NCBI GenBank assembly: GCA_964443985.1
Contig: CAYUFO010000001.1
Coordinates: forward strand, 1-27,687
Source: an uncultured archaeon
GTDB taxonomy: Archaea; Altiarchaeota; Altiarchaeia; IMC4; JBDREA01
Length of the DNA stretch: 27,687 nucleotides
Direction of reading: 5' to 3'
The notes under the pieces were generated by a model. The model saw nothing but the letters and a program-made list of their open reading frames with translations. It searched no databases and was not told the origin of the DNA. The translations under genes were made by a program, and so were the position numbers. Shown in pieces: positions 17,971-27,687 of this stretch; within the stretch, counting starts at the first letter, position 1, and every line of letters starts with the position of its first letter.

Positions 17971-19230
17971 TCACGCCCTTTGCTGGGAGATTTTTTGCAT
18001 CACCGTGAGCGCCCGGTCGTTCATCTCGGGCGTCCCGATGCTGATGCGCGAGAAGTGTCTGCCTTCAAAGCCCGGGAATGGTGGCTGTGGGCGGATGTAG
18101 GTGTCGTCTTGTTTCATTCGTTTGAAGAGGTCCTTTGATGAGACGCCGAGGTCGGTCGTTTCGACGAGGAGGAAGTTGGTCTTGCTCGCGAGCGCCGACA
18201 CGCCGTCGATGGCGTTGAGCTCGCCGTGCATGCGCTCGCGCTCGTCGACGACTTTCCCGACGTTGTCGCGCATGTAGGCGAGGCTTTCCGGGTCGAGGGC
18301 AGCTATGCCCGCGAAGAATGCGGGGGTGTTGACGGGGAATGTGAGGTCCTGGCCGCGGACGGCGTTGAGGGCATCGGGGTTGCCGTAGAGGGCGCCGAGC
18401 CTCAGACCTGCAAGCGCGTGGACTTTCGACATGCTTCGGAGCACCATGAGATTGGGATAGTCCTCGATGAGCGTGGTGGCGTCAAAGCCGGCTTTTTCGT
18501 TGAAGGTGCCGTCCGGCCGTCGCTTGCCTGCGAACTCGTAGTAGGCTTCGTCGACGAGGGTGGGTCTGCCTTCGTCTAGGATCCTTCGCAGGTCTCCTTC
18601 ACCGAGGCGCTGTCCCGTGGGGTTGTTGGGGGAGTCGACGAGGACGAGGCAGGCGTCCATCTTGCGCATCGTCTTGACGAAGTCGTCGACCGGGAAGCTG
18701 AAGTCGTCGTTGAGGGTGACGCCGTGCTGGTCGACGCCCGCCTGCCCCGCTTCGACGGGATATTTGACGAAGCCCGGCGAGAAAAAGACCGCGGGGCCCT
18801 TGAATGTCGAATACACGAGGCGGATGGCTGCTTCGCCGCCGTTGGTGGCCATGACGTGGTCGCCCGGGACGCCGACGTAGTCGCCGAGCTTGTATTCGAG
18901 GGCCTTGATGTCGGGTTGGTAGAGGCCCGCCTTCGGGATGGCCAGCTTCAGCGCTTCCTGGATGTGGGGGCTCGGCGGATAGGGCATCTCGTTTGAGGCG
19001 AGCGAGGGGGCGAGGCCGGCAATCATCTCGGCGACGGGCGCGTCCCAGCGGACTTCTCCCTTCGCTCCGGGCACGTACTTGTAAGGATTCGATAGGACAT
19101 GGGCGCGGATGAACGACGTCATCTCGCCGGGCGTCTTGTCGCTCTCCTGTGACCGTTCCATGGGGCGTCCCATGCGCTCTTGCATGGGATGCTCGGTTGA
19201 CGTGCGGGGTATTCGTTTCTCAATCGACAT
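17971..19230 (-). CDS. hisC: Histidinol-phosphate aminotransferase (class II PLP)
   Basis: LASNEMP, TNGGEAAI, PNNPTG, VDEAYYEF and RSMSKVHALAGLRLG (PLP Lys). Start at ATG 19230 after GGAGG; downstream in-frame ATGs are alternative starts. Confidence 0.85.
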   Translation of the reverse strand: MSIEKRIPRTSTEHPMQERMGRPMERSQESDKTPGEMTSFIRAHVLSNPYKYVPGAKGEVRWDAPVAEMIAGLAPSLASNEMPYPPSPHIQEALKLAIPKAGLYQPDIKALEYKLGDYVGVPGDHVMATNGGEAAIRLVYSTFKGPAVFFSPGFVKYPVEAGQAGVDQHGVTLNDDFSFPVDDFVKTMRKMDACLVLVDSPNNPTGQRLGEGDLRRILDEGRPTLVDEAYYEFAGKRRPDGTFNEKAGFDATTLIEDYPNLMVLRSMSKVHALAGLRLGALYGNPDALNAVRGQDLTFPVNTPAFFAGIAALDPESLAYMRDNVGKVVDERERMHGELNAIDGVSALASKTNFLLVETTDLGVSSKDLFKRMKQDDTYIRPQPPFPGFEGRHFSRISIGTPEMNDRALTVMQKISQQRA

Positions 19231-19298
19231 CGGCCATCTCCTCCATGCACTGGTGTAATACAAGGGGGGCTTCAAGGATAAAAGGATGCCGGAGGGCG

Positions 19299-20030
19299 TC
19301 ACCCGGTCCCCGCCGCGAGGAGCTCCCCATAGTCGAGCTTGTTCTCGTAGAGGGCCTTGCCGATGACGACGCCCCAGGCCCCCGTCGTCCGGATGGCGGC
19401 GAGGTCGGCCTTGCTTGAGATGCCCCCCGAGACGATGACCGGCTTGTCGGTGGCGGTGACGGCCGCCTCGACGGCGGCGAGGTCGATGCCCCCCATACGG
19501 CCCTCGACGTCCACGTTGGTGGCGAGGAACCCCCAGCAGAGGCTCTGGGTGCCCTTCATGAACTCGTCGACGGCCACCGTCGAGTCCTCCTGCCAGCCGT
19601 GCAGGACTATGCGTCCCGCCCGGAAGTCGGCAGCGAACATGACGCGCTCGACGCCGAAATCGGATTTGAGGTTTTCGAGACCCTCGACGTTCTTCTCGTG
19701 GTAGAAGAGGAGGGCCCAGGTCCCGAGGATGATGCGGTCGATGTCGGTGGCGAGGAGCTCGCGGGCGTAGTCCATGCTCCTGATGCCGCCGCCGACCTGG
19801 ACGGGGACGTTCACTGCCGAGACGATGTCGAGGATGGCCTTCTTGTTGTTCTTCTCTCCCGAGCTTAGCGCGGCATCGAGGTCGATGACGTGCAGGAGCT
19901 CGGCGCCTTGGCCCTCCCACGACGTCGCGATGTCGACGGGGTCGCCGTAGTAGGAGGCCGTGGCGGGGTCGCCGCCGACGAGCTGGGCGCATTTTCCCTC
20001 ATAGATGTCGATGGCGGGGATGATGTTCAT
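19299..20030 (-). CDS. hisA: ProFAR isomerase HisA
   Basis: IIPAIDI, LHVIDLD, VQVGGGIRS, TNVDVEG and SGGISS...GVVIGKALYE. Confidence 0.95.
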   Translation of the reverse strand: MNIIPAIDIYEGKCAQLVGGDPATASYYGDPVDIATSWEGQGAELLHVIDLDAALSSGEKNNKKAILDIVSAVNVPVQVGGGIRSMDYARELLATDIDRIILGTWALLFYHEKNVEGLENLKSDFGVERVMFAADFRAGRIVLHGWQEDSTVAVDEFMKGTQSLCWGFLATNVDVEGRMGGIDLAAVEAAVTATDKPVIVSGGISSKADLAAIRTTGAWGVVIGKALYENKLDYGELLAAGTG

Positions 20031-20036
20031 GGTCGC

Positions 20037-20528
20037 TTATTGGTTGAAGAAGTCGGAGAAGACGCTCTCCCCCTCCGTGGTTTCCTCTCGGGTTTCCTCA
20101 TCCCAGGAGTAGCCTTTCTCATCTCCCTGGGTTGGCGAATCCGTCCGGTCCTGATAGTATTCGAGCGACGAATGGGTGGTGTAGCTTCGTTGGGGTCCGC
20201 CGGCCTCGAGGGCGGCGAGCCGCTGGTTGATGCGCCGCAGGTTTCGGTCGATCTCCTTGAGGTAGGCGACAACGGCCTGGACGTCCTTTTTCGTGATATG
20301 GGCCTCGTCTGCGGGGTCGTCTTGGCGCAATTCGAGGGCCGTGGGGGTGAGTCCCGCGATGTCGCCTGCGACAAGGCGTTGGTGGAGGGCTTGGATGTTT
20401 CGGCCGGCCCCCTCGACGACGCAGGCGAGCTTGTTGGGGCGGATGGTGATGACCGAGCCCGCCAGGCCGTTGGCGGCGATGGCGTCCTGGATGGCGACGG
20501 TGTGGCTATCCTCGACGTCGCCCATCAC
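20037..20528 (-). CDS. Hypothetical protein: degenerate acylphosphatase-like N-terminus, coiled coil, acidic tail
   Basis: GTG start overlapping the upstream TGA (GTGA). GDV...GLAGSV...VVEG...IQAL pattern followed by the heptads YLKEIDRNLRRINQRL. Confidence 0.6.
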   Translation of the reverse strand: MMGDVEDSHTVAIQDAIAANGLAGSVITIRPNKLACVVEGAGRNIQALHQRLVAGDIAGLTPTALELRQDDPADEAHITKKDVQAVVAYLKEIDRNLRRINQRLAALEAGGPQRSYTTHSSLEYYQDRTDSPTQGDEKGYSWDEETREETTEGESVFSDFFNQ

Positions 20529-21844
20529 GTAGAACTTTGCCGTAGCCGTCGTAATCCCTCCGCGAGGTCGGCGAGCGCCTCCGAGCTCTGGAGGACGCGG
20601 GCGCCGTCACGCATTCTGTTATAGGTCTCATCGGTTAAAAGAGCTACGAGGGATAGGTCGAGGTTCTTGCAGGCGGCAGCGAGCGCGTGATGGGAGTCGG
20701 CGTCGGGTTTGAGGTAGCAGGCTATGGTGTCGTACTCGTCCCGGTGCGCGGTGAGGTAGGCCTCGATGCGCTGCCGGGTGACCTCGCGGTAGCGTTCCCC
20801 TATCTCTGGCGTCTCGCGGCGCTCCTCCCAGTCGTAGTGGGCGAAGGGGTAGCGGGCCTCGAATTCCCGGGGTACGACGCCGGCGTTGCTGAGCATGACC
20901 TCGTGAACTTTTCCGCGCAATTCTTCTTCTTCGAGCACGCCGAGGATGGCTTGGTGCGTCTTCGAGCGCGAATAGGGTTTGGTGAATGTGCAGGGCAGGA
21001 AGAGGAGGGTTCTTTTCCCCGGCGGCGGCCGATACCATCTGGCGAGGTAGTCCTGCCAGACCTCGAAGTGTGGGTGGGTGAGGTAGGGCTCCCCGACGCC
21101 GGCGAGGGGTTCCTGCAGCTGTCTGGGGAACGTGGGCACGAACCGGAACGTCTCCTCATCGAGCAACACGTCCTCGTCATTTTTCCAGGGCGCGGTGAGC
21201 TCGCAGAACTCCTCGCGGCTGAGATAGCGCCATTCGCCCGAGAGCCACTGCCGCATGAGGGGTGTGGCGCCGTGGGGCAGCAGGTTGATGACGACGAGGT
21301 CGTCGGCGTGCCTTCGGGCGACGTCTATCGAGCCCCCCAGGCTTTCGGGGATGTCTGCGACGTAGGGTGGGTTGGCAAGCAGGTAGGCGCGCACGCGTCC
21401 GCCGGCCTCGTGGATGGCCTTCGCCGCGGACTCGAAGTCGGCGACGGTGAATCCCTTTTTCAATTTTTTCAGCACGGCGTCGTCGGCGACCTCCAATCCG
21501 ATGGCGACGGCGTATTCGAAGCCATCGAAGTCGGCCAGTTTTTCAGCCGTGACGTGCTCGGGCCGGGATTCCACGATGACGCGTCTGACGCCCTTCTTTC
21601 GCAATGCAGAAAGCAGGTATCTCCTGGATTCTGCGGGGACCTGAGCTTCGTCGAGGAAGCTGCCCGAGCCGAACACCTTGACCGTGCGAGCGTCGGCGGG
21701 GGTCGTTTCGAGGAAGGAGTCGAACTGCTCTTTTAGGGATTCATGCGTCGGCGGGTTTCCAATGAGTTTGCCGTAGCCGCAGAACGCGCATCGTGCCCAC
21801 GAGCAGCGTCCCGCCGAGAATATGAGTGTGGCGTCGCGGGCCAT
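20525..21844 (-). CDS. Fusion of a RaSEA-like radical SAM domain and an ArcS-core (DUF5591-like) domain; putative archaeosine synthase
   Basis: N-terminal C14-x4-C19-x2-C22, GSGSFLD, VESRPE and AIGLEVA (RaSEA/TIGR01210-like). C-terminal LFLPCTFTKPYSRSKTH and GVVPREFE..YPFAHYDW (ArcS core-like). Confidence 0.8.
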   Translation of the reverse strand: MARDATLIFSAGRCSWARCAFCGYGKLIGNPPTHESLKEQFDSFLETTPADARTVKVFGSGSFLDEAQVPAESRRYLLSALRKKGVRRVIVESRPEHVTAEKLADFDGFEYAVAIGLEVADDAVLKKLKKGFTVADFESAAKAIHEAGGRVRAYLLANPPYVADIPESLGGSIDVARRHADDLVVINLLPHGATPLMRQWLSGEWRYLSREEFCELTAPWKNDEDVLLDEETFRFVPTFPRQLQEPLAGVGEPYLTHPHFEVWQDYLARWYRPPPGKRTLLFLPCTFTKPYSRSKTHQAILGVLEEEELRGKVHEVMLSNAGVVPREFEARYPFAHYDWEERRETPEIGERYREVTRQRIEAYLTAHRDEYDTIACYLKPDADSHHALAAACKNLDLSLVALLTDETYNRMRDGARVLQSSEALADLAEGLRRLRQSST

Positions 21845-21854
21845 GGTGCGGGCG

Positions 21855-24587
21855 TCAGACGAGCTTCTCCTCTTCCTCGCGGATGCGGGCGAGCTCGGCT
21901 TTGATGCGGTCGACGGTCTCGCTCTTCTTCTCGGCGGCCTTGCGGGCCTTCTCGCTTATCAGTGCGAATTCGACGTCGCCGAAGAGGACGGGCTTCTTGA
22001 TGTCGATGACGCCCTCGTCGCGGAGCTCCCGCGCCCAGGTCTTCACGACGGCAGAGGAGGCGCCGAGCGCCTTGACGGCGTCCTTGAATTTCACCTTCCT
22101 CTTCTTTTGGAGGAGGTCTGCGAGGTCCTGGGCGCTCTTACGCTCTCCTTTCTCCTCCCGTTCTTCTCGTTTTTCGGCCTTGTGGAATCGGGCCTTGGAT
22201 GAGGAGTCCTTCCAGTGCTCGGGTTCGGGCGTACTGGCATCGATGCTGAGCTCCTTGTCGTCGGCGGATGTTCCCTCGCCAGCCGCCTTTGCAGGTGGTG
22301 TGTCCCCCTTTTCGAGGGATTGGGATTTTTCCCGTGAAGGCGCTTCTGATGGCGTTCTCCCTGCTTTTTTCCCACCCTTCGATGCCGGGGGTTTCTCCTC
22401 AGAGGGTGATTTCCCGGTATCGTCTTTCTGCGCGTCCTCCCCGCTTTTAGATGATGTGGCGGGGGGTGTTGGGGAGGTGGGGTGTTCCTTCTCCGGCTTT
22501 TCCTCTGACACCGGGTGGTCTGCCTGCTCTTTTCCCTTTTCTTGGGGGCGTTTCCCGTCTTCTGTTTCCTGTTCGGCAGCTGCTTTCTTTTCACTCCCGT
22601 CTTTCGTCGATAGTGCCTGGCGGTCTTCTTCAACACCTCTCTTTTGCGGCCCTGCTTCCTTTTCGTCTCTTGTCTCTTTGTCGTTGGTCGTGCTTTGCTT
22701 GGAAGAAGGCGCGTCAACCTCGCCTTTCTCAGGCCGGTGTCCTGCTTCTTTGGGCTCTTTTTTTGGTTGAGGCCCGTTTGGGGGCTCTTTTTTCGGCTTC
22801 TCCTGCTTCCCTCCTCCCAGCAGGTTCTTCAGAAATCCGCCGGCTCCTTTTTCCGGAGGTCCGTGGTCTTCTTTTTCGCGTTTCTCGTCGCCGGGCGCAG
22901 ATACTTCCTCCTTGTCGGGGGGGGAGGGTGTTCCCTCCCGAGCGTCTTCCGGCGCCGTTGCTGGGACGCTCTCGCCTTCTCTACCCTGTTCTTCATTCGG
23001 GGCCCCGGGCTCGCGCACGAGCTCCTCCTTGTCGGGGATGGAGGGCAGCTCTTCCTTGGCCGTCCCCTCGAAGACGTCGGGGGGGGGTTCCTCGGGTTCG
23101 AGCTTCTCGCCGACGAGCTCTCCGAGGTCCTTTTCGATTGACCGCAGCTCGGCCATCCGTTTCTTGAAGGTGTCTTCGAGCTCGACGCGCCCCTCGTCGA
23201 GGTCGGCGACCTCCTTTTTGATTTTCTCCTCCTCTTCCTTGAGCTCCTTTCTGATGGCCAGGAGCTCTTCCTCCTTTTCTTGGATGTGCTTCTCCCATTC
23301 GGCGAGCTCGGCTTCGTGCTTCTTGAAGCCTTCCTCCTTTTGCTTCTCCTGTTCGGCGAGTGCCGCTTCCTGTTTTTTCCGCTCCTCTTCGAGGCGGCGG
23401 CGCTGCTCTTCCTCGCGCTTTTTGAGGTCCTCCTGCTTGCGCTTGAGGTCGGTTTCGAGCTGCCTTCGGCGCTGCTCGTCGGCTGCCTTTTTCTTCTCGA
23501 GGTCCTTTTCCTTTTGGGCTATCTGTTTTTCTTCGGCGTCGAGTTCGGCTTTCTTCTCCTCGTAGATCTTTTCGATGTGTTCTTCTTTTTCCGTGAGGTC
23601 TTCTTGCTCCTTGCCGAGCTCTGTGAGGTAGCCTTCGAGCTCTTGTTTGGCCTTGATGCGTTCGGCGCGTTCGGCTTCGAGCTCTTTTTTGAGCTCGGCG
23701 AGGTCTTCTCCCCCCTCTTCTCGCTTCTCGAGCTCTTCGAGCCTCTTTTCGACGTCGAGGCGTTTTTCATGCTCTTCGTCGAGGCGTTTTTGGAGGTCGG
23801 CGACGACCTTGTCCTCGGATAGTCCGCCGTCGGCGACGAGCTCCTTCTCGTGTTCTTCGAGGGACTTGACCTTCTCTTCTAGCTCGGTGAGGCGTTCGTG
23901 CTCTTTTTTCAGCTCGGCTTCCTTCTCCTGGAGCTCGGTCTTCTCCTTTTCGAGCTCTTCTGCGGCATTCTTGCGCTCCTCGCGCTCGGCGATGAGCTTC
24001 TCCTGGAGCTCTTGGAGGTCCTTCTGGTCGCCGATGCCCGCGCTTCGTATCTTCTCCTTGAGCTCCTCGATTTCTTTTTGGAGGGCCTGCATGCGCTCGT
24101 GCTCCTTTTTGACCTCGACGTCCTTGTCGACGACCTTGTCCTTCCACTTCTTGAGCTCCTCTTCGAGCTCCTCGCGCTTCTTTCGCTCGAATTCGAGCTC
24201 CTCCTCCTTGAGGTGGAGCTTTTCGGCGGCGAGGCTCTGGGCCGCGCCCGTGGATGCGCCCCCGCCCCGGGACGGAGCTGCCACCTTCTTCTTCATGGAT
24301 TCGAGCTTGCGCATGAAGCTTCGAGTGGGGCTCAGGGTGGGGTTGCGGTCGTCGGGGTTGTCGATGTCGATGAGGCCTTTCTTGGCGAGCTGGCGGCTCC
24401 AGCTTCGCATGATGCCGAGCTCGACCCCGAGGATGTTGGCGGCGTCGGTGACGGTTATCTCGCCGACGCGGGCGATGAGCTTGAGAAGGTCTTTGGGTCC
24501 CGAGTCCCTGCCGTCACCGCTCCCAGAGAGGTGCTGGACATCCAGGGTCGGCGGGGGGCCGCGGGGGTTGGTGGGCATCGGGGACAT
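21855..24587 (-). CDS. 910-aa protein: N-terminal wHTH, long Glu/Lys coiled coil, disordered linker, C-terminal wHTH
   Basis: ITVTDAANILGV...SWSRQLAKKGLIDI and VKFKDAVKALGA...TWARELRDEGVIDI. About 350 aa of heptad-rich E/K sequence. No Walker A motif seen. Confidence 0.8.
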   Translation of the reverse strand: MSPMPTNPRGPPPTLDVQHLSGSGDGRDSGPKDLLKLIARVGEITVTDAANILGVELGIMRSWSRQLAKKGLIDIDNPDDRNPTLSPTRSFMRKLESMKKKVAAPSRGGGASTGAAQSLAAEKLHLKEEELEFERKKREELEEELKKWKDKVVDKDVEVKKEHERMQALQKEIEELKEKIRSAGIGDQKDLQELQEKLIAEREERKNAAEELEKEKTELQEKEAELKKEHERLTELEEKVKSLEEHEKELVADGGLSEDKVVADLQKRLDEEHEKRLDVEKRLEELEKREEGGEDLAELKKELEAERAERIKAKQELEGYLTELGKEQEDLTEKEEHIEKIYEEKKAELDAEEKQIAQKEKDLEKKKAADEQRRRQLETDLKRKQEDLKKREEEQRRRLEEERKKQEAALAEQEKQKEEGFKKHEAELAEWEKHIQEKEEELLAIRKELKEEEEKIKKEVADLDEGRVELEDTFKKRMAELRSIEKDLGELVGEKLEPEEPPPDVFEGTAKEELPSIPDKEELVREPGAPNEEQGREGESVPATAPEDAREGTPSPPDKEEVSAPGDEKREKEDHGPPEKGAGGFLKNLLGGGKQEKPKKEPPNGPQPKKEPKEAGHRPEKGEVDAPSSKQSTTNDKETRDEKEAGPQKRGVEEDRQALSTKDGSEKKAAAEQETEDGKRPQEKGKEQADHPVSEEKPEKEHPTSPTPPATSSKSGEDAQKDDTGKSPSEEKPPASKGGKKAGRTPSEAPSREKSQSLEKGDTPPAKAAGEGTSADDKELSIDASTPEPEHWKDSSSKARFHKAEKREEREEKGERKSAQDLADLLQKKRKVKFKDAVKALGASSAVVKTWARELRDEGVIDIKKPVLFGDVEFALISEKARKAAEKKSETVDRIKAELARIREEEEKLV

Positions 24588-27523: not shown

Positions 27524-27600
27524 CTAACCCGTCTTATACCTGTGCTTCAGCACGGCTCGCATCTCCTCGGCCTTTCCCTTCCCGATGCCCTCGATGTCTC
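27524..27600 (-). pseudogene. Orphan 3' fragment of a helix-hairpin-helix protein (Hef/XPF/ERCC4-like C-terminus)
   Basis: Translates as DIEGIGKGKAEEMRAVLKHRYKTG* with host-like codons. No in-window start; the frame continues upstream only as non-HhH sequence overlapping hicA. Confidence 0.55.
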
Positions 27601-27687
27601 CTACTCTCCCCTCCTTTTTTTCAGATACTCTTCTCGTGTGAGGTTTATCTCCTTGAGTATCTGTCTGAGGAGGGTGGGGCTTATTTC
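27601..27687 (-). CDS. hicA: 3' end of a HicA-like type II toxin (partial, runs off the window)
   Basis: EISPTLLRQILKEINLTREEYLKKRRGE* matches the HicA C-terminal 'I.P..L..IL....IS.EEF' pattern. Lower GC than its flanks. Confidence 0.65.
   Translation of the reverse strand, partial: EISPTLLRQILKEINLTREEYLKKRRGE

Follow-up and report, generated by a model that had tools for sequence, protein, structure and literature searches.

A radical-SAM–ArcS fusion protein of Altiarchaeota is a probable minimal one-polypeptide archaeosine synthase

The window analysed in the present study is a stretch of 27,687 nucleotides from an uncultured archaeon of the phylum Altiarchaeota (GenBank assembly GCA_964443985.1, contig CAYUFO010000001.1), and it contains a gene in which a radical S-adenosylmethionine (SAM) domain of the RaSEA type is joined in one chain to the C1 catalytic domain of ArcS (DUF5591). 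This RaSEA–ArcS fusion architecture is real, and the gene probably encodes a minimal, one-polypeptide synthase of archaeosine (G+). In the two-protein system, ArcS transfers lysine to 7-cyano-7-deazaguanine (preQ0) at tRNA position 15, and RaSEA, tightly bound to ArcS, turns the preQ0-Lys adduct into G+ using SAM (Yokogawa 2019, as summarised in PMC11298593).

A preliminary description of this DNA had placed such a fusion at positions 20525–21844. These coordinates proved to be exact, but the strand had to be corrected to minus, and a plus-strand reading of the interval was ruled out, as stops occur throughout its frame. On the minus strand the frame is single and uninterrupted, as had been claimed, and runs for 439 codons plus a stop from an ATG at position 21844, which lies 8 nt past the stop codon of the upstream gene. 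All of the motifs that had been named could be read in its translation, i.e. the cysteine triad CSWARCAFC (C14-x4-C19-x2-C22), VESRPE (residues 91–96) and IGLE (residues 115–118) in the N-terminal half, followed by FLPCTFTKPYSRSKTH (residues 282–297) and GVVPREFEARYPFAHYD (residues 322–338) in the C-terminal half.

The identity of the N-terminal half was assessed with profile hidden Markov models (HMMs). The NCBIfam model TIGR01210 (RaSEA) matched residues 5–164 with 131.7 bits (E 3e-38, model positions 16–184 of 313), which makes RaSEA the best family for this half as had been predicted, and Pfam Radical_SAM matched residues 13–151 (34.8 bits, cut-off 29.5). Elp3, HemN, MnmL and other radical-SAM families were rejected with scores of at most 31 bits, the runner-up in NCBIfam being MnmL/YtqA at 31 bits, and Pfam matches to HAD hydrolases (E ~0.01, below cut-off) were dismissed as chance matches on an alpha/beta barrel. 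When 1.84 billion cluster representatives were searched with phmmer, 1407 matches at E <= 0.001 were obtained, and the matches listed were sorted by HMMs made from each half of the alignment described below. Among these, proteins of 330–360 amino acids (aa) rank next for the N-terminal half, and all eight that we scanned are bona fide RaSEA (305–453 bits, cut-off 212). One canonical RaSEA is 38% identical with the fusion protein over residues 6–180. The physical partnership with ArcS that is typical of RaSEA takes the form here of a covalent join to an ArcS C1 domain.

In the C-terminal half, Pfam DUF5591 (PF17884) matched residues 263–384 with 66.9 bits, well above the cut-off of 26, and this settles a check that the preliminary description had proposed. 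The ArcS models NF040592 and NF053620 scored 69.4 and 68.5 bits respectively, in the C1 region only (positions 255–395 of NF040592). The ArcS C1 signature PC-X3-KPY-X2-S-X2-H, taken from literature quoted in PMC10516641, is complete at residues 284–297 (PCTFTKPYSRSKTH), so that an RaSEA-type domain is followed in one chain by an ArcS-type domain with its catalytic motif. A canonical 555-aa ArcS (DUF5591 plus PUA) is 36% identical over residues 206–378, and PDB entry 2q07 (AF0587, DUF5591-PUA) is the only solved relative by sequence (E 6e-9). There was no Pfam match to TGT, TGT_C2 or PUA domains in the fusion protein. The loss of the TGT-like N-terminal part and PUA that had been noticed earlier thus extends to C2, and the full ArcS architecture (TGT-like, C2 and PUA domains with a score above cut-off) is not present.

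We aligned 46 homologues that are 49–56% identical with the query (alignment A1). Both halves are strongly conserved in it, with every motif residue either invariant or conserved to at least 90%, a level far beyond chance. The cysteine triad is at least 90% conserved and the SAM-binding core of the N-terminal half (GSGSF..D, ESRP within ESRPE, and GLE) is invariant. In the C-terminal half, the invariant residues are C285, K289, P290, Y291, S294, T296 and H297 within the stretch of the C1 motif, together with S319, G322, P325, E329, Y332, P333, F334, Y337, D338, W339 and C376. An AlphaFold2 (AF2) model built from alignment A1 has a mean predicted local distance difference test score (pLDDT) of 93.5 and a predicted template modelling score of 0.87, with no segment under a pLDDT of 50, and confidently predicts a compact two-domain protein. 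Among the 50 best of 131 Foldseek matches to PDB, the N-terminal half was matched by radical-SAM barrels (MgmA, Elp3, viperin and HydE) and the C-terminal half by 2q07. Against AlphaFold DB clusters, residues 4–237 superpose on stand-alone radical-SAM proteins of 311–335 aa (root-mean-square deviation 2.2–2.6) and residues 245–435 on stand-alone DUF5591 proteins of 195–226 aa. A solved ArcS–RaSEA complex was found neither among the six PDB sequence matches (E <= 1) nor among these 50 best Foldseek matches. The C-terminal tail (residues 385–439), which has no Pfam match, stands where canonical ArcS has C2 and PUA; helices are predicted at residues 383–394, 405–411 and 421–438, and its conserved positions include N401, L402 and L403.

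To establish how widely the architecture occurs, we first consider database proteins and then genomes. A homology search with the fusion protein matched 292 proteins. Nearly all of the best 120 of these are 415–465 aa long with both Pfam domains, mostly labelled Candidatus Altiarchaeota or Altiarchaeales, and they carry names such as ‘DUF5591 domain-containing protein’, ‘radical SAM protein’ and ‘archaeosine synthase (alpha-subunit)’. Among the phmmer matches listed, approximately 13 clusters (50% identity) are full-length radical-SAM-then-DUF5591 fusions, 34–49% identical with the query. In a survey of 61 species genomes of the phylum, the fusion is present in approximately 47. DUF5591 was found in 48 of them, and all of its matches that are not truncated at a contig end lie in open frames of ~425–545 aa. 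RaSEA-like matches were found in 46, none of them above cut-off and all but one weak match being the N-terminal domain of the fusion itself. A scan of GTDB species genomes gave 64 fusion loci, which include Altarchaeum sp. and IMC4 and WOR SM1 metagenome-assembled genomes (MAGs) within Altiarchaeota and, beyond it, MAGs labelled Nanohaloarchaea, Iainarchaeum, Parvarchaeota, Aenigmatarchaeota and Nanobdellati, submitter labels that may be imprecise. Eighteen loci were checked: each consists of one open frame (381–546 aa) free of internal stops and carries the cysteine triad and C-X3-KPY-X2-S-X2-H, and this holds for those labelled as other DPANN lineages too. These data clearly show that the fusion architecture is DPANN-wide and not private to one genome; the recurrence in relatives that the preliminary description had proposed to survey is phylum-wide and reaches MAGs labelled as other DPANN lineages.

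The source MAG (1.84 Mb, 282 contigs, 86% complete) also holds the genes expected around a G+ synthase. No DUF5591 gene and no RaSEA-like gene other than the fusion open reading frame (ORF) was found in it, and neither a stand-alone ArcS nor a stand-alone RaSEA was found in this 86% complete MAG. Its single TGT-family gene encodes a TgtA/arcTGT protein of 589 aa (477 bits, cut-off 350) with TGT_C1, TGT_C2 and PUA domains. The DpdA model reached only 23.8 bits, on this same TgtA protein, and the MAG yielded neither a second TGT gene nor a DpdA-like one, so the association with DpdA that marks ArcS2 is not seen here. The queD, queC and queE genes form a tight cluster on contig C180, in which QueC is packed so closely between queD and queE that there is no room for a Gat domain; the QueC frames of relatives, at ~220–345 aa, are therefore plain too. 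A QueF-like gene was not found in the MAG. The genomic context proposed for checking in the preliminary description, arcTGT with queD/C/E and separate arcS/raSEA not found, was thus recovered in the MAG.

The same tgtA and que context extends to the phylum, across which fusion, arcTGT and queC co-occur: arcTGT was found in 50 of the 61 genomes and queC in 44, always plain with no Gat domain. One family (f9; eight genomes, 63–87% complete) is without all four of DUF5591, arcTGT, queC and RaSEA-like matches, and one genome (G031, 91% complete) is without both arcTGT and the fusion while keeping a divergent QueC (169 bits). Completeness is 57–89% in the few discordant genomes. Two genomes of one genus (G050 and G051 of g25, 90–92% complete) retain arcTGT and the fusion, but QueC was not found in them, which suggests that preQ0 is salvaged. 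The tRNA genes provide a weak check of consistency: of the 17 that were found in the MAG, 11 carry G at nucleotide 15.

Given these domains and this context, we infer both activities, the amine donor, the target (G15 of tRNA) and the product, G+. In the proposed route, QueD, QueE and QueC would make preQ0 and the single TgtA/arcTGT would insert it at tRNA position 15. The C-terminal ArcS-C1 domain would then add the amine donor, presumably lysine by analogy with ArcS of T. kodakarensis, M. acetivorans and T. acidophilum, to the nitrile carbon to form the preQ0-Lys amidine. The N-terminal RaSEA-type domain is predicted to carry a [4Fe-4S] cluster on C14, C19 and C22 and to cleave SAM reductively, and the ensuing radical chemistry would take off the lysyl carbon chain to leave the formamidine of G+. 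The covalent link would stand in for the tight ArcS–RaSEA complex of Euryarchaeota. The preliminary description had argued that an enzyme so reduced must recognise tRNA differently. That claim is weakened by the finding that the minimum substrate of T. kodakarensis ArcS is the preQ0 nucleoside, its 5′-monophosphate being accepted too (PMC11298593, 2024). As ArcS acts on both, the L-shape of tRNA is not required, and because ArcS needs no tRNA architecture an enzyme without PUA is plausible.

Several observations weigh against a one-polypeptide G+ synthase. Both domains fall under the equivalog cut-offs, with 131.7 bits against 212.15 for TIGR01210 and ~69 bits against 440 and 600 for the two ArcS models. 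The RaSEA part is trimmed, with ~15 N-terminal and ~85 C-terminal model positions lacking a counterpart, so that approximately the last third is gone (the matches of relatives extend to model position ~228 of 313). Compared with most stand-alone RaSEA proteins, the cysteine loop is shorter by 3–5 residues, the spacing CX4CX2C being found in 114 of the 120 top homologues of the fusion and CX7–9CX2C in 66 of 93 stand-alone, mostly RaSEA-like, proteins that match the N-domain HMM. In a FastTree phylogeny the fused N-terminal domains form a clade separate from canonical RaSEA (support 0.99), which also includes a few unfused proteins. The closest relatives of the C-terminal domain are short stand-alone DUF5591 proteins (200–280 aa) and not canonical ArcS, although this placement is not robust, since the tree of the top 150 representatives holds just one canonical ArcS. 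Some DUF5591 proteins, namely phage ArcS2, act in DNA modification (PMC10516641). The amine donor is uncertain because M. jannaschii ArcS has been reported to use ammonium, glutamine or asparagine directly. Finally, with a MAG only 86% complete, the absence of other G+ synthases from it is not proven.

It is therefore necessary to weigh other readings of the same gene. One is that the scaffold yields a different product, a 7-deazaguanine derivative in tRNA other than G+, for example through a retained or differently cleaved amino-acid adduct or another amine donor. The sub-threshold scores, the lost third of RaSEA with its shorter cysteine loop and the separate clade of the fused N-terminal domains would fit such a divergence, as would the occurrence of clade members in clusters that do not look tRNA-related (with SPASM and B12 radical-SAM proteins, a nucleoside deoxyribosyltransferase and Vut_1). 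However, both domains strictly conserve their catalytic signatures, no other type of G+ synthase was found even though arcTGT and the preQ0 genes are retained, and the known two-step reaction is the simplest reading of a covalent ArcS-C1/RaSEA pair. We consider this alternative unlikely.

Rather less likely again is a role outside tRNA like that of ArcS2, in which preQ0 would be converted into G+ or a related base on DNA, a free nucleoside or a nucleotide. Co-expression of ArcS2 and DpdA2 of phage nt-1 in E. coli gives 2′-deoxyarchaeosine (dG+) (PMC10516641), and the substrate range of ArcS described above (PMC11298593) would allow for such a role. The fusion itself has no PUA or other RNA-binding domain, its C-terminal domain is closest to the short stand-alone DUF5591 proteins, and a reverse-order DUF5591–RaSEA-like fusion adjoins a short TGT-superfamily gene on a bacterial-looking contig. 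In contrast, the only TGT-family gene found in the MAG scores above the equivalog cut-off for TgtA and has the C2 and PUA domains of the tRNA type, with no DpdA-like gene found beside it, and the presence of the fusion follows arcTGT across the 61 genomes. It is, moreover, a single-copy gene in a conserved housekeeping neighbourhood. The least probable explanation by far is an artefact, in which a frameshift, an overlooked stop or a chimeric assembly would have merged two neighbouring genes. The fragmented MAG from which the window comes might prompt this reading, but we exclude it because the ~430-aa architecture recurs uninterrupted in many independent assemblies (among them a contig of 1.56 Mb, a genome in one contig and a genome from a single cell), all 18 of the loci that were checked have stop-free single frames, and the stretch between the domains is conserved and has high model confidence.

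A minimal one-polypeptide G+ synthase would resemble the euryarchaeal ArcS–RaSEA complex in its two catalytic modules, a C1 core with its signature and an RaSEA-type radical-SAM domain, in its context of arcTGT and preQ0 genes and, as predicted for the fusion, in the physical coupling of the activities. It differs in being one chain, RaSEA first, where the complex has two, and in the domains and segments of ArcS and RaSEA that it lacks and the cysteine spacing that it has. The stand-alone C1-only homologues of ArcS (archaeal DUF5591 proteins, ArcS2 of phages and viruses, and AF0587, 2q07) share the minimal C1 domain and its motif, and are the closest sequence relatives of the C-terminal half, but unlike the fusion they are not joined to a radical-SAM domain. 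ArcS2 acts on DNA together with DpdA, whereas the only transglycosylase found in the MAG is the tRNA-type TgtA. The Gat-QueC and QueF-like G+ synthases of Crenarchaeota are predicted to achieve the same overall conversion, preQ0-tRNA to G+-tRNA, but with folds and chemistry unrelated to those of the fusion, and in the MAG QueC is plain and QueF-like was not found.

The preliminary description knew of no RaSEA–ArcS fusion, and we likewise found no description of one in the literature searched, which did not cover Yokogawa 2019 or Phillips 2012, where a mention is possible. Databases already show the fusion as a pair of Pfam domains. No dedicated NCBIfam model matches it, and because it falls below both equivalog cut-offs its annotation is generic. 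The chemistry is thus an expected one, and what is new is the minimised single-chain form together with its DPANN-wide distribution.

Other arrangements of the two domains were also seen. On L019, an 80-kb Joint Genome Institute metagenome contig that looks bacterial and carries OEP/RND efflux genes, a 680-aa protein (P0152, in the stretch L019:6855-10043) has the reverse order, DUF5591 and then an RaSEA-like domain (132 bits to TIGR01210). It lies directly downstream of a gene for a 376-aa TGT-superfamily protein that scores 96.8 bits for arcTGT and 29.7 for DpdA, both below cut-off, and is followed by two proteins with no family match. The TGT-like gene and P0152 may form a bacterial two-gene module for 7-deazaguanine (G+-type) modification. 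At L020:8001-14127, a 544-aa protein (P0151) with a C-terminal RaSEA-like domain that falls within the clade of the fused N-terminal domains adjoins a stand-alone DUF5591 protein of 208 aa. The surrounding cluster encodes SPASM and B12 radical-SAM proteins, an amidohydrolase, a NUDIX protein, a Vut_1 (YhhQ-type) transporter, thymidylate kinase and a nucleoside deoxyribosyltransferase, and looks like deazapurine nucleoside or DNA hypermodification chemistry. An apparent fusion of canonical ArcS to RaSEA (P0231) was not counted, as both domains are truncated and the gene is internal on a 2.2-kb contig. With the reverse-order fusion beside its short TGT-like gene and the unfused pair in the radical-SAM/nucleoside cluster in mind, we tentatively raise the possibility, itself somewhat doubtful, that ArcS-C1/RaSEA is a portable two-step ‘nitrile-to-amidine’ cassette for which no dedicated nucleic-acid-binding domain is necessary, and which might serve tRNA G+ in DPANN as a minimal single chain and other 7-deazaguanine chemistry, on DNA or small molecules, in these subclade relatives.

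The coordinates of the fusion gene, its parts and its downstream neighbour are collected in Table 1.

Table 1 Features of the fusion gene and its downstream neighbour in the window
Feature	Positions	Strand	Basis
Whole ORF, RaSEA-like radical-SAM domain plus ArcS C1 (DUF5591)	20525..21844	minus	Translation, Pfam, NCBIfam, AF2
N-terminal radical-SAM domain, aa ~1-240, partial TIM barrel of RaSEA type	21125..21844	minus	TIGR01210, identity, Foldseek
Codons of C14-x4-C19-x2-C22, predicted [4Fe-4S] ligands	21779..21805	minus	Translation, alignment A1
DUF5591 / ArcS C1 catalytic domain, aa 263-384	20693..21058	minus	Pfam PF17884, ArcS models, PDB 2q07
Codons of PC-X3-KPY-X2-S-X2-H, aa 284-297, PCTFTKPYSRSKTH	20954..20995	minus	Literature motif, alignment A1
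C-terminal helical tail, aa 385-439	20528..20692	minus	AF2 helices; no Pfam match
Downstream 162-aa ORF, a neighbour and not proven part	20037..20525	minus	No Pfam/NCBIfam match

The fusion sits in a syntenic housekeeping neighbourhood and not in a mobile or defence island. Relatives carry, in this order, Hef, a long protein without a Pfam match, the fusion, either a small ORF or an FAA hydrolase, and a HisA/F-like gene, which at one locus (L017) is followed by a SAM hydroxide adenosyltransferase and TatD. The ATG of the downstream 162-aa ORF overlaps the TGA of the fusion as TGATG, so the two may be translationally coupled. A homologue of this ORF lies directly 3′ of the fusion in three of eight distinct related contigs checked, with 54% identity in the same genus and 25–28% at L013 and L017/L018; by eye only, its N-terminal region has the look of an acylphosphatase/ACT-type fold. 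Upstream, a 910-aa protein (21855-24587, minus strand) has no Pfam match, and its C-terminal end weakly resembles a Sul12a-type chromatin protein (20 bits). Wherever flanks were fetched from other genomes of the phylum (L010–L018), its homologues lie immediately upstream of the fusion, so that the two genes are a conserved pair with no obvious functional link. At the window end (27524-27687, minus strand), a frame that remains open contains a terminal helix-hairpin-helix-like stretch (…VGDIEGIGKGKAEEMRAVL…) and is overlapped by a second minus-strand frame; this ‘orphan Hef tail’ may be the 3′ end of hef cut by the window boundary, because a full Hef (helicase-ERCC4-HhH) occupies the equivalent upstream position in relatives. 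On the other side, a 673-aa ORF (17971-19992, minus strand) matches a HisC-like aminotransferase (213 bits) only over residues 330–670; the 330 residues before these either lack a family match or result from an ORF that was called too long.

As a natural ‘Rosetta-stone’ fusion, the protein gives independent support for ArcS and RaSEA working as one unit. It also defines the minimal catalytic parts: ArcS can apparently do without its TGT-like, C2 and PUA domains and RaSEA without its C-terminal third, and this apparent dispensability fits the 2024 finding that ArcS is active on the preQ0 nucleoside (PMC11298593). As a compact 439-residue protein with a high-confidence model, it is an attractive target for work on the structure of the RaSEA step and its radical mechanism. 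If the predicted activity is correct, the lysine/radical-SAM route to G+ would reach past Euryarchaeota into Altiarchaeota and other DPANN lineages, and, as a consequence of the generic annotation of the fusion, G+ synthesis would be under-called in DPANN genomes.

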